Of a stretch of DNA of 64,000 bases, positions 5,466 to 37,983 are shown one piece after another (the first letter of the stretch is position 1; each line of letters opens with the position of its first letter). Made by a program: the position numbers and the translations under genes. Below the pieces are notes generated by a model. The model did no database searches. It had not been told where the DNA came from and saw only the letters and a program-made list of their open reading frames with translations. This DNA comes from Eledone cirrhosa (lineage: Eukaryota). The stretch spans positions 224,564,001-224,628,000 of the forward strand of contig OZ024743.1 of assembly GCA_964016885.1 (NCBI GenBank), written 5' to 3'.

Positions 5466-5846
5466 ACAATATATTAATAAATGGAAACTATATTTATAAA
5501 ACCATAATTATTTTATTATATATATTTCAAGGGCGACCAAGGTAAATTATGGTGCGCTTTCATCAGATAAAATACAGATTTGTTTTATAAATAAATATTG
5601 ACATACCCGGCAAAAAGACAACCTCAACGGTTTTTATAAAACAAATCTGTATTTTATCTGATGAAAGCGCACCATAATTTACCTTGGTAGCCCTTGAAAT
5701 ATATATAATAAAATAATTATGGTTTTATAAATATAGTTTCCATTAATATATTGTATATTTACTCCACTAACTTGTTGAGTGCTTTATATCAGTTATAAAA
5801 ATTGTTAAGCTTGTTGAATCCCAACAAATTAAATATAACCTCTGCA
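5466..5846. mobile_element. Fold-back PLE pseudo-LTR with two opposed hammerheads (family B)
   Basis: Inverted arms 5466-5591 and 5633-5753, then a tail to 5846; flanked by (TA)n. Homologous to 30455-30900 and to the 3' end of the PLE at 61040-61265. Confidence 0.8.
5650..5715 (+). ncRNA. Type-I hammerhead ribozyme (antisense twin at 5509-5574)
   Basis: Stem I TATTTTAT/ATAAAATA (8 bp); CTGATGA 5658-5664; stem II AAG..ACCA/TGGT..CTT; GAAA 5696-5699; palindromic stem III ATATATAT; AUA cleavage site. Confidence 0.85.
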
Positions 5847-5872
5847 TATATATATATATATATATATATATA

Positions 5873-5964
5873 TAGGAAAAGGTATGACCCACTCTACTAC
5901 CCTAAGTATTGAGTACTCTGGTGCGTTATGGTCCATCTGGTTCCTTACCACAATTCCTTCGTTA
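5873..5964 (+). mobile_element. pLTR tail fragment (family C)
   Basis: CCACTCTACTACCCTAAGTATTGAGTACT..GGTGCGTTATGGTCCA.CTGGTTCCTTACCAC also occurs at 29941-30018 and 30980-31056, and partly at 5082-5165; all lie within (TA)n. Confidence 0.7.
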
Positions 5965-6077
5965 TATATATATATATATATATATATATATATATATATA
6001 TATATATATATATATATATATATATATATATATATATATATATGTATATATATATATGTATATATGTATATATATAT

Positions 6078-6355
6078 CCAGGGAGTGTAAGGTGAAGTTA
6101 CTGTTGGTTCACCCAGGTGAGCACTCGGTATTTAGGTTCACCTCTGTAGTGAGGTGTAGAGCTAAACAGAGTGTAAATATAATAATACAAGGACAATTTG
6201 TTATGCCTTCATTACGTTTATTGATTGTTGACGCGCGTTTCGCTATTGATCAGCTCAAGGTTCGATCTGTATCGATCTGGCCCGACTCTGGAATCAAAAG
6301 CTCGTCGGACCTCTGCTGTTGTCTAACAGCTTTTGATTCCAGAATCGGGCCAGAT
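6078..6355 (-). mobile_element. HHR-bearing pLTR remnant with short inverted arm
   Basis: Minus strand: CCGACGA (degenerate core), GCTTTTGATT...GATCAATAGC (long stem II), GAAA CGCGCG TC. A 28-bp inverted repeat at 6275-6302/6328-6355; GAGTGCT tail motif; TA flanks. Confidence 0.6.
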
Positions 6356-7146
6356 ATATATATATTGTAGGTGTACATGTAAATATCTTTATTAGCATCT
6401 TTCGGTGCCTACAATTTGATTTTTTTAAATTTATGTTTTAAGATGGCTTTTAAGTTTTGACTTACTAGAACCCTGGCAACGAGTATGTGAGGAAAGGGGT
6501 ACTACTGGATCCAAGAGTCCCCATTGTCGGCTCGCCTCATTTAACGATATCTTGACTCCTATCTCAGCCTCCACTTTTCGTTTACTTTAAAAGAATTCGG
6601 TTTGCCTCTCCTTAATGATATCTTCCCTCCCTCTTTCCCTCTTTACTTTACGGTGACTTTCAAAGAATTCGTGCCAACGAATGATCAAATTCAGAACAAG
6701 CGATCAAATTCATCAACAGCCTGCGATTAAACATCTGCATTAGTGTTTGAATTGTGCAGTGTTATTCGACAACAGGAAAGAGATGTTTGCTAGTTGAAGC
6801 TGTGCGTAGTAGAAATGAAATATTGTCCAGCAAGTTGTAATTCACGAAAGCTTGAGTGATGTAGCAAGAATTAAATTAAAAAATGAGCTTGCTTTGGTGA
6901 ATTCTTATTTTCTGTTAAATTAAATTAATCGATTGCCACTAATCAAACGAGAAAAGTTTCTTATAATATAAAGAATACGATGAAATGATTCACTTGTAAA
7001 TAGAGTTACGTCCCTTTATGATCTGAGTTCAAATCCCGCCGAGGTTAACTTTACCTTTCATCCTCACGGGGTCGATAAAATAAAGTAACAGTAATGTACT
7101 GGGTAATTGCTGGCCTTGTGCCTAAAATAGAAACAATTATTGAATG

Positions 7147-7631
7147 TACTCTCTGGTCCCAAATAATGGGGGTGGGGTGGGGGTTGGAATAAACCGGGGT
7201 GGGAGTGAGGATGGACATTTGCTTAAATTCTTATAAGCAGGGGTATTGGGAAGTCGGTAATTGTATAGTGTATGTTCGTAAATAAGGGATTTCTTGTAAT
7301 GTTCCTTTTTGACATACATAATATCTTTTTCATGTAAAATAAAATAATTATTAGATTCTCCAGGTGGTGTATCGATATGAATCACCTCGCCGGAGATAGA
7401 TTAGCAAAATTTAATAAGCGGGGTGTTGGAAAAAAAATCTGAAAAATTAATAAGCAAGGGTGGGATTATTCAAGATCTGAAAGTAATTTATTGTTACAGT
7501 AAATTTACATAGACACCTGAGTAATTTATATAGGCAGTTGTAAGTGGGTGTTGGAATAAAAGCGGGGTAGGGGGATCTTAAAAATTAACAAGCATGTGGG
7601 GGGGGGGGGGGTTATTCAGGACCTGAGACTA
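7147..7631. mobile_element. Putative Tc1/mariner-type MITE
   Basis: Imperfect TIRs TACTCTCTGGTCCCAAATAA / TTATTCAGGACCTGAGACTA; internal repeats of AATAAGC.GGGGT.TTGGAA. Confidence 0.45.
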
Positions 7632-7689
7632 GGTGGCATCCAAAGAATATCAACTCAAAGGATATGAACGCAAAAGTATAAACAGAATG

Positions 7690-35124: not shown

Positions 35125-35903
35125 TATATATATATATATATATACATATATATATATAAGTATATATATATATATATATATATATATATATATATATATA
35201 TATATATATATATATATATATATATATATATATATATAAGTATATATATATATATATATATATATATATATATATATATATATATATATATAAGTATATA
35301 TATATATATATATATATATATATATATATATATATATATATATATATATATATATATATATATATATATATATATATATAAGTATATATATATATATATA
35401 TATAAGTATATATATATATATATATATATATATATATATATATATATATATATATATATATATATATATATATATATATACATATATATATATAAGTGTA
35501 TATATATATATATATATATATTTATTTATTTATTAAAATAACAGATTACTATATATATATGGCTTGAACCCGTAAGTGAATTGAAGGTTCTGCAACACTC
35601 TGATACACAGATTATTTATTATTAAGATGTATAAACTTGACATAACTATTATCATATTATATTCTCTCAACTAATCACACTTGATCATATTTCTCTATCC
35701 CGTTTTCTCCCCCCATAATTATTATATTTTTATTATTATTTGAAAAAATCGGTTTTTTTACATTGTGTTTTCCCCTCCAAATATTCGTTTATATTTCTTT
35801 ATATATTCTCTATATATTTTTTTATCTTTATTATTTTTTTATCTTTATTATTTCCACTTTTATCCTCCTTTATATTTTACCTTATTCTTACTTTTATACC
35901 TTA

Positions 35904-36816
35904 CTAGCAGTAAAGCCCGGCGTTGCTCGGGGTCGCTCAGTAGCTGTGTTAAAGTTACAATGTTAAGTTTCTTTTTTGGCTTAAAAAATGTAGTGTCTAC
36001 TGTGCAGACTTGCATGTGGTGTTTTTGATTAATATTCCCTCAACCAACAATATGCCTTATGAAGTTAAGAAAACATAACGATAACCCCAATGTTATAACA
36101 AAAGAGGATGCTGGGGATAAAAACTGCACTGGTTATTTATTAACAAAGATCGAAAATGTAAACACTGCAACGCAGAGAAAAACATTAGCGTAACCAAATT
36201 ATCAGTTATGTCTGTCTGCACGCCTATATCACCTCTCTGCACGACTGTCTGTCTGCACGCCTATATCACCTCTCTGCACGACTGTCTGTCTGCACGCCTA
36301 TATCACCTCTCTGCACGACTGTCTGTCTGCACGCCTATATCACCTCTCTGCACGACTGTCTATCTGCACGACTGTCTGTCTGCACGCCTAACGACGAAAT
36401 ATTTGCTTGTTTTACGTAGTCTTTAAATAGACTTGTTTTCAAGTAAAAATATTGTTTTAAAATGCTTTTAAATGGAAATGAAGCAAAACGGAAGCTTAGT
36501 GTTCGAACTGATGAATTTTGCAGGTCAATATTTTGCTGGCTCGACAACTGTTAAAGCCAGCGTAATTTTTTACGTAAGACGCTCAATGTAAACAGAACAA
36601 AGGGAAATAACTGATAACTTACGCTCAAAAATCGATACATTATATTCGATTTCGTCACATAGGGTGGGTCAATTTGAATTTTTTTTTTCCGATGTCTTTG
36701 CTAGGGCTCAATGTACAAGTATAGCAATTTCGGTGCAATTCCGTGAGAGATTCTAAGAGGAGATGTGTGCCAAAAATCGATAGACAGACAGACAACCACA
36801 GTTTTATATATATAGA
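35904..36816 (-). mobile_element. Non-autonomous Helitron with an internal 37-bp minisatellite
   Basis: Minus strand: A|TCTATATATATAAAACTG...CCCGAGCAACGCCGGG CTTTACTG CTAG|T. Tandem TCTGTCTGCACGCCTATATCACCTCTCTGCACGACTG units at 36209-36388. Confidence 0.8.
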
Positions 36817-37190
36817 TTATAGTGTAATCTTCCCCATGCCTCATTATACACTATTAATTATAGATTATTATTATTACTCTTTTTCCATTTCTAATTACCT
36901 CATGTACTTTCTCCTCCGCTATATATATATATATATTGTATGCCCTTTGTGTTTGTGTAGCCTCTGCGCTCCCTCTGCACCATACTATCGACGCCACCCC
37001 ATCTATGGTTCAGCTAACCACCCGACTCCCCGGGAATGAATATGACCGCAGCTAGTAAACAAGGACCCACACCCCACCCTCCCGCACCAAAATTAGAGTT
37101 ATCGTCCCCTACTTTTGCTCTTTACTCTCTTTACTCTTTGTTCTTGAATGTTTGGTTGGTAGAGTCCATAACACCAATCAAACCCCTTTT

Positions 37191-37240
37191 ATAGCTCTGA
37201 CGAATCGTACGGTTACGTAAGGAAGAAACATTGTAAGCCA
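37191..37240 (+). ncRNA. Type-I hammerhead motif
   Basis: GCT CTGACGA ..TACG GTTA CGTA.. GAAA CATTG TA AGC; GUA cleavage triplet. Confidence 0.6.
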
Positions 37241-37323
37241 ATAAAAATCTTTTGATGTTGTAGACGCTCTTGTGTTCTTTTTCATATATATATATATATA
37301 TATATATATATATATATATATAT

Positions 37324-37540
37324 ATATTAAAATTCAAATATTAATAAAATAGATGTTCTTGTGATCAATTAAATTTTATTATATGTATAATAAAATTTAA
37401 TTGATCACAAGAACATCTATTTTATTAATATTTGAATTTTAATATTAATAACTCTGGAAAATATTTTACTTGTAGAGTGCTTCCAATCTACTGTAAAACT
37501 CATTCTTTGATGTAATCATTGAATCTTGTTTAACTCTTTA
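37324..37540. mobile_element. Near-perfect ~120-bp palindrome plus pLTR-like tail
   Basis: Palindrome 37324-37445, followed by ACTCTGG...TAGAGTGCT. Confidence 0.7.
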
Positions 37541-37541
37541 A

Positions 37542-37983
37542 TATATATAAAAGAAGAAATTAAAAGATGGTTAAAAGAGTTCCATATATTTTATTATGCG
37601 CATTTCGAAAACAACATCATCCTGAGACAAAAATTGTGTTCTCATCAGATAAAATAATGTAACATGATATGAGGCCTAAAAAAAAAACACTTGTCAAGAA
37701 GAAAGTCTCCAGTCTACATAAGTGTCCAGTCTACACTTTCTTGTTGACAAGTGTTTTTTTTTTTTTAGGCCTTATATCATGTTACATTATTTTATCTGAT
37801 GAGAACACAATTTTTGTCCCAGGATGATGTTGTTTTCGAAATGCGCATAATAAAATATATGGAACTTTTTTAACCATCTTTTAATTTCTTCTTTTATATA
37901 TACTCCAGTTCTACCAACTGTTGAGTGCTACTTATCTGATATATGCATAGTTTTATTGTTCTACAATATTACTCACCTTCTAC
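37542..37983. mobile_element. Fold-back pLTR with two opposed hammerheads (family B-related)
   Basis: Arms 37542-37706 and 37735-37902. Plus-strand HHR 37788-37857: TATTTTAT CTGATGA GAA...TTC GAAA TGCGCAT A ATAAAATA. Confidence 0.85.

Follow-up and report, generated by a model that had tools for sequence, protein, structure and literature searches.

Two copies of a bulged hairpin ahead of the open reading frame mark the insertion ends of Hydra-clade Penelope-like elements in Eledone cirrhosa and may program twin priming

How do the one-tailed inverted repeats of Penelope-like retroelements arise, and what fixes their ends? Their origin is debated, with endonuclease resolution set against antisense self-priming, and the question is raised again by a 64,000-nt stretch of Eledone cirrhosa DNA (assembly GCA_964016885.1, contig OZ024743.1, forward-strand positions 224,564,001 to 224,628,000; this whole stretch is called the window). 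Its first-pass annotation had reported fold-backs in which the inverted, tail-less arm stops just upstream of a shared small hairpin, and had read the hairpin as a conserved cis-signal fixing where a second, inverted complementary DNA (cDNA) begins. Here we report that the parent elements carry two copies of this hairpin (hairpins 1 and 2) before the open reading frame (ORF), and that insertions end 6-9 nt upstream of either copy (sites 1 and 2, respectively). The two copies probably dock two reverse transcriptases (RTs) on a single read-through RNA, with both cut (TA)n ends priming. Judged by protein motifs and by likeness to published consensi read by eye, the fold-backs are truncated Penelope-like elements of the Hydra clade.

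Comparison of the window with itself confirmed seven fold-backs and their adjoining motifs at the annotated positions. The arm ends given by BLAST lie 0-9 nt before the motif, the distance of 0 nt at 37902 arising because TA is common to the element and the flank. The fold-backs and their parts are as follows.

5466..5845, plus strand: family G fold-back, with the inverted tail-less arm from 5466, the tailed sense arm to about 5845 and (TA)n on both sides
5658..5720, plus strand: hammerhead-like core (CTGATGA...GAAA) of family G, upstream of site 1; approximate bounds, from a pattern match and by eye
5761..5783, plus strand: hairpin 1 of family G (ACTC-stem-TT-GAGT-GCT), with site 1 directly upstream
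13152..13362, minus strand: family D fold-back; hairpin 1 at 13212-13190
28285..28481, plus strand: family C fold-back; degenerate hairpin 1 at 28420-28440
29832..30018, plus strand: family B fold-back; hairpin 1 at 29946-29972, tail end at site 2
30452..30900, plus strand: family A fold-back; hammerhead-like core from 30710, hairpin 1 at 30816-30838, tail end at site 2
37324..37541, plus strand: family E fold-back; hairpin 1 at 37451-37481
37542..37983, plus strand: family F fold-back; hammerhead-like core from 37796, hairpin 1 at 37902-37929

Across copies, the motif has an RCTC/GAGY closing stem, bulged by 1-2 nt on its 3' side, which encloses an inner stem-loop and is followed by RCY at the 3' end. 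The enclosed stem-loop is free in sequence and length, and its stems vary yet still pair (CAG/CTG, TAC/GTA, GTCC/GGAC), so that the closing stem, bulge and RCY appear to be the only fixed parts. A typical family C hairpin 1 reads ACTC-TGC..GTA-TT-GAGT-ACC, and some families have the same core with a longer inner stem of 40-70 nt (L048:5358, L084:5976, L088:1983, L092:5485 and L228). Motif scans used a pattern with pairing rules. None of 114 Rfam matches (E<=0.1) reached the gathering score; there were repeat-driven microRNA and small nucleolar RNA hits, none of them at the hairpins.

The association was measured in a blind sample of 120 stretches of 10 kb (1.2 Mb) from the 3.0-Gb genome (G000), 100 of them evenly spaced and 20 beside the window. 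Eighty fold-backs were identified in this sample without reference to the motif. A strict motif starts between -3 and +16 nt from the arm end in 20 of the 80, and at 5-9 nt in 18 of these 20, where about 0.8 would be expected by chance (0.5% per side for a random position). The association thus exceeds what chance would give. Where TA was present on one side only, the motif was found in 17 of 47 fold-backs; among the remaining 30 are degenerate copies and members of several families without the motif.

Ends were then mapped with 19 family references, the blind set comprising 90 element 3' ends. One is a read-through, 81 of the other 89 abut a TA run and eight do not. The 81 are divided between site 1 (38), site 2 (31), the far end of family C or D (nine, two of them D ends for which the reference end was placed 6 nt too far) and other positions (three). 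At site 1 and site 2 alike, most TA runs begin 6-9 nt ahead of the hairpin, and the microhomology between element and target is mostly 2-4 nt of TA. Both ends, then, fall at a short TA tract with a hairpin 6-9 nt downstream, which makes the tail the stretch separating two copies of a single signal. Longer TA tracts further upstream take 0/63 ends in family A (where they lie 35-130 nt upstream), 0/44 in B, 0/9 in H2 and 2/20 in F1; H1 was left out of these counts because its reference contains TA repeats. In contigs of three sequencing runs whose kind is not recorded, family B has loose TA ends at both sites, although RNA ends cannot be shown by such contigs.

Unpaired blind copies end at site 1 in 17 cases and at site 2 in 20 (partners near stretch edges may have been missed), and tail-less ends are also found on ORF-long sense arms. 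The signal is conserved, structured and shared between families, and it fixes the tail-less end, but it is not specific to a second, inverted cDNA as had been suggested.

Hairpin 2 and the helix described below had been missed because they are absent from the truncated copies in the window; they are seen in read-through copies. In four such copies of family A, the sequence past the fixed tail end has a short TA tract, then hairpin 2 (GCTC...GAGC-ACT) and then an ATG; hairpin 2 is mutated in one of the four and the upstream part is rearranged in another. The corresponding hairpin of family B was predicted from A and then found, with 509 pattern matches, tandem arrays included, against none in a reversed control. 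Two head-to-tail family B arrays with a period of ~3,531-3,542 nt (G000:C1:91476611-91487262 and C1:437200348-437210965) are likely to be master loci. In family B arrays such as L175, the frame is open throughout the 474 codons seen. A genome-wide twin-hairpin pattern is only weakly specific when used alone (2364 matches against 961 in the control), and a Hydra ORF start follows 17 of the first 30 loci. Seventeen subfamily representatives were picked by eye, drawing on the read-through copies and on 50 twin-pattern loci that were inspected. A Hydra-type ORF start follows hairpin 2 in 16 of the 17, with the ATG close by, and 15 representatives besides A itself match the family A protein at 33-82% identity. 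In the leader, a hammerhead-like core comes first and is followed by TA tract 1, hairpin 1 and strand a; after a spacer come TA tract 2, hairpin 2 and strand a', and then the ATG. A tail end inside the first ORF codons, as in Poseidon elements, was considered and ruled out, because hairpin 2 precedes the ATG.

The segment after hairpin 1 (strand a) is complementary to the segment after hairpin 2 (strand a'), giving a predicted helix of 10-12 bp whose letters differ among lineages. Two copies of strand a are found in the window.

5787..5798, plus strand: linking-helix strand a of family G; its partner a' lies outside the window, after hairpin 2 in read-through copies (L195)
30842-30853, plus strand: linking-helix strand a of family A, within the 30452..30900 fold-back

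The mean duplex energy of a with a' is -9.7 kcal/mol within a family, compared with -3.6 +/- 2.5 across 238 cross-group pairs, and a strand's own partner ranks best in 11 of the 17 representatives. Single-sequence folds give the helix a probability above 0.7 in 12 of 17. When 13 of the 17 were aligned (plus-strand loci only), six of the 12 helix pairs change on both sides, and 81% of cells are paired in the a/a' register compared with 30-43% in slid registers. This covariation is support and not proof, since a single alignment row supplied the structure and the aligned sequences are related to one another. Strand a is predicted to pair with a' in the RNA, with one hairpin at each end of the helix, forming a roughly two-fold symmetric scaffold. 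The functional strand would be the sense strand, judging from the polarity of the copies and, by analogy, from experiments on Poseidon; in our strand test the only pointer to it is the core stem, which has four G-U pairs and no A-C pairs.

The inverted pairs suggest how the two sites are used. In the blind sample, 25 of 28 head-to-head pairs combine site 1 with site 2 and none combines like with like, so that all 25 pairs with both ends at a site are of the 1+2 type. Over all loci, many of which were seeded with tails, 103 of 138 pairs are 1+2, four are 2+2 and one is 1+1. At polymorphic sites, the two arms of a pair carry the same allele (A, 49/58; B, 64/68; C, 57/63; and F, 43/43) more often than shuffled arms do (0.56-0.75); family H, with three pairs only, is uninformative. 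The 84 directly joined pairs comprise 38 with arms of equal extent, 14 with a longer site-1 arm, 11 with a longer site-2 arm, 11 without overlap, eight that run beyond the reference and two with like ends. In five of the 11 non-overlapping pairs the site-2 arm stops at -9..0, that is, at site 1. Non-overlapping pairs make up 4 of 21 blind joined pairs, and one is present in the window.

5083..5163, no single strand: family B insertion with arms that do not overlap, a site-1 arm (minus) being joined to the last ~30 nt of the tail (plus)

Folding back of a single cDNA could not produce such non-overlapping pairs; two primings on one RNA could. Taken together, the data point to inverted pairs arising by twin priming on one RNA. 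A large palindrome of family D (L067:3450-5960) has ~1.2 kb of RT thumb and endonuclease on both arms, one of which ends at site 1 and the other at the tail end.

On balance, we favour a model in which the two-fold symmetric RNA scaffold, with two equivalent RT-docking hairpins at opposite ends of one covarying helix, programs twin priming by a dimer of an RT that is related to telomerase. An RT-endonuclease dimer would bind the scaffold and nick both (TA)n strands, after which the two target 3' ends would each prime at a different tract, 1 or 2. The enzyme at site 2 could halt at site 1, leaving arms that do not overlap, or displace the first cDNA and continue, giving palindromes; the two cDNA ends would then be joined head to head. 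If only one priming were fixed, the product would be an unpaired copy, tailed or tail-less. Hairpin 2 would never be copied from its own site, and therefore only tandem read-through copies would make tailed progeny. This predicted inability of tailed copies fits the need for tandem copies stated in two earlier papers (PMC4209133, PMC2377424). Consistent with this model, the RT of PAc, a Poseidon element of Anolis, uses two internal starts that bound the tail in vitro (Frangieh et al. 2024, PMC11167929); RNA extending past the copied segment is required, both strands are nicked and a dimer is predicted. By analogy, an RNA signal for Poseidon-like initiation would be provided by the layout seen in the Hydra elements. 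If the scaffold model is true, it would offer one general account of the tail of Penelope elements, of their head-to-head inverted repeats and of why tandem copies are needed, and other clades would use the same geometry with different sequences.

A number of observations weigh against this model. Hairpin 2 of families C and D was not found in four pattern searches (0, 0, 3 and 2 hits, none a true read-through) or among 50 inspected loci; their masters may be missing or diverged, or the two-hairpin rule may not be valid for them. Family K has no ORF after hairpin 2 at its representative locus. The a/a' helix is weak in J, M, O and B2 and in the H3 and F3 copies used, and a competing pairing of the two 3' arms dominates three of the 17 folds. 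RNAalifold, run on a MAFFT alignment, chose only this 3'-arm pairing, without covariation; in its input hairpin 1 and strand a of family B were misaligned, and the 3'-arm pairing is broken in B and K. Fold energies do not favour the sense strand, the antisense being more stable in 16 of 17. Five of the 138 pairs of the seeded full set are 1+1 or 2+2, allele sharing between arms could be due to later conversion, and the 38 joined pairs with equal-extent arms are also expected from snap-back of a cDNA. Additionally, the published Hydra-1_Obim consensus has no clear motif by eye (PMC8557442).

The rival that survives best, which we consider unlikely, is that the ends are cut and not primed. The GIY-YIG endonuclease would recognize the motif in a DNA copy or intermediate and cleave the TA tract 6-9 nt upstream, and the tail would be the product of endonuclease-mediated resolution, to which Craig et al. 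2021 (PMC8557442) credit it. Both sites are TA-like, as is the target, the Drosophila endonuclease needed tail sequence (as recounted in Frangieh et al. 2024, PMC11167929), and strand energies do not single out the sense RNA. However, a covarying long-range helix and stems of variable length would be meaningless in double-stranded DNA, and non-overlapping pairs in which the site-2 arm halts at site 1 are in keeping with two polymerases sharing a template. Additionally, the Poseidon ends match measured RT starts (PMC11167929).

A second and quite improbable rival is that priming takes place once, at the tail end, and that the cDNA folds back so that the second strand stops at hairpin 1. This is the boundary idea of the first-pass annotation and is close to the self-priming on an antisense template that was read from junction palindromes (Arkhipova 2013, PMC3846280). 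It would account for the equal-extent arms, the shared alleles and the strict asymmetry of the pairs, but it cannot make non-overlapping pairs (11/84) or longer site-1 arms (14/84, and ORF-long site-1 arms as well), and it leaves the 17 unpaired blind site-1 copies and the equal spacing at hairpin 2 unexplained. Snap-back is thus contradicted as the sole route, and some perfect palindromes may be its product.

We regard it as very unlikely that the two primings take place on separate RNAs, one per site and both from one source locus, and that a protein dimer enforces the 1+2 asymmetry. Allele sharing needs only a common source locus, the helix could form between two RNAs and a dimer is predicted for the Poseidon protein (PMC11167929); the site-2 arms that stop at site 1 (5/11) and the linking helix are nevertheless simpler on one molecule. 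Finally, a role for the structure in translation or in keeping the 5' leader RNA stable, with ends falling there only through nearby TA tracts, would fit the closeness of the ATG to hairpin 2 but is scarcely credible, given that the longer TA tracts upstream take none of the family A ends and that the spacing is constant across families with differing tracts.

Two kinds of known system resemble the twin-priming model. In LINE-1 (long interspersed nuclear element 1), both target ends are reportedly able to prime on one RNA, as Ostertag and Kazazian are said to have described in 2001, giving an inverted segment and a non-overlapping 3' segment; the second priming occurs occasionally and at variable internal sites. 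The non-overlapping joined pairs described here, with their shared alleles, are alike in this respect. In contrast with LINE-1, the second priming would here take place at an encoded and constant position 6-9 nt upstream of hairpin 1, be routine and often yield overlapping palindromes. In hepatitis B epsilon, in the 3' stem-loops of long and short interspersed nuclear elements and in the boundary elements of telomerase RNA, a bulged hairpin sets the start of copying at a fixed distance. Those signals are single, whereas here there are two copies, and the likeness is one of resemblance only.

The closest parallel is PAc Poseidon (PMC11167929), in which the tail is likewise the interval between two sites, RNA past the copied part is likewise needed, and initiation in a stem-loop and a predicted dimer recall the model proposed here. 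There are differences. The PAc starts are inside the ORF, in an AC-rich loop without target homology, whereas those described here are before the ATG, at TA tracts with 2-4 nt of homology. The Poseidon tail is 30-40 nt long, compared with ~60-100 nt here, where each end is set by its own copy of a conserved hairpin. No such hairpin was seen by eye in the ~97-nt PAc RNA (Fig. S1 of PMC11167929), and the parts of that paper dealing with initiation give neither a cross-family signal nor a model for inverted pairs.

The identification of the clade rests on several features. Family A pieces, reached by following the family upstream from window 30630, are collinear from the N-terminus to the endonuclease and give a single ORF with an RT plus a GIY-YIG domain at the C-terminus, most copies being broken; families B and D also have Hydra-type RT/endonuclease features, D being represented by thumb and endonuclease (L067). 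RWR and DKT (replacing DKG) are present in A and B. By eye, A has a CNCRIKSNC linker, CKLC and CRH, B has CNLC and CKH, and D has CGLC and CPH. The ORF starts of E, F, G, H, J, M and O match those of A and B; no ORF of C or K was found. The hammerhead-like core pattern is present in A, G, F, H, C and D, and an Rfam scan of the window gave no hammerhead hit. The core of family B is apparently a variant, TTGATAAG or TTGAGAAG (L161-L190 leader, by eye), and resembles the U3-A8 covariation of Cervera and de la Pena 2014.

These features agree with the Hydra clade as described by Craig et al. 2021 (PMC8557442): DKT, RW[KR], a CxCX5C linker, a C-terminal GIY-YIG domain with CxxC and CxH but no CCHH, a hammerhead motif, (TA)n targets and tandem and inverted insertions with a tail. 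The sections of PMC8557442 that describe the clade mention no hairpin, second copy or linking helix, all of which are present here, and give a tail of 30-40 nt against ~60-100 nt here, where tandem units are ~3.5 kb. In six published Hydra consensi (Acropora, Apostichopus and others; File S7 of PMC8557442, by eye) the motif is clear in three, a variant in one and not convincing in two. Hydra-2_Amil and Hydra-2_Ajap have GCTC-stem-bulge-GAGC-ACT near the 3' end, and Hydra-1_Ajap opens with two hairpin copies before the ATG and complementary segments after each. Hydra-1_Crog opens with a GCCC/GGGC version and Hydra-1_Amil has a weak motif. Protein searches gave Hydra-like relatives without DNA context, and a metagenome scan gave two loci, neither with a usable leader. 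The six cases of the first-pass annotation are independent as insertions but not as lineages. All six are in families with Hydra-type ORFs, and the motif is therefore shared by descent; those at 5753 (G) and 30808 (A) belong to sister subfamilies with 82% ORF identity.

Inverted pseudo-long terminal repeats (pLTRs), tails, hammerheads and two start sites are already known. Searches of the full-text literature, subscription papers excepted, turned up no description of the hairpin, of its presence in two copies, of the helix between them or of twin priming by Penelope elements, and the cis-element, which is real, is apparently undescribed in this known clade. What results is an RNA element of ~150 nt with a spacing rule, and a mechanism that is testable with the published Poseidon in vitro assay. 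The finding is relevant to how a template start is selected within a structured RNA by the retroelements most closely related to telomerase, and the hairpin is a marker for annotating Hydra-clade boundaries.

Two families had been noted to lack the motif, at 12228 and 31353, and this was borne out. Two motif-less families adjoin Neptune-like proteins: that of the element at 31349-35124, which has a CxxxxCxxC linker, and a second one with a Neptune-like endonuclease piece upstream at L276. In a motif-less family with a tail starting TATATTTAAGTAACAGCC (L038, L043, L052, L088, L092 and L146), there are partial tandems of ~420 nt. Past the end of this tail there is a segment (CCCACTC or CTCACTC) complementary to the GAGTGRG within it, the two co-changing in some copies, and CAGCCG recurs after both ends; the logic is similar to that of the hairpin families, in other letters. 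The remaining features of the window are as follows.

5891..5917, plus strand: hairpin 1 of an unpaired short family B copy
30983..31009, plus strand: hairpin 1 of an unpaired family B copy
31067..31090, plus strand: G-C hairpin variant (GCTC..GAGC-ACT) of another family, adjoining a TA tract; the same variant is at 46087-46110
31349..35124, minus strand: contrast element lacking the motif; its Neptune-like RT and its GIY-YIG fragment lie at 32528-34228, and it has inverted arms plus a tail of ~38 nt
61037..61290, minus strand: unpaired tailed family H copy, 5' bound approximate; hairpin 1 at 61119-61098

The hairpin at 31067 was considered as hairpin 2 of the adjoining family B copy and ruled out, the true B hairpin 2 being different in sequence. 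In family A, the 5' truncation or fold-back centre is often near a small inverted repeat, CACT-ATCC-AGTG (window ~30625-30645; loci L002, L005-L007, L009, L010, L012-L015, L017 and L020), an excess that is biased because the seed used for the search started at this point. Outside the studied fold-backs, small repeat families have more hammerhead-like cores, at 11442, 21737 and 29548 on the plus strand and at 5362 on the minus strand. Finally, fragments of a non-LTR retrotransposon (an endonuclease-like region, an RT and a PHD finger) are found on the minus strand at 38841-41028.

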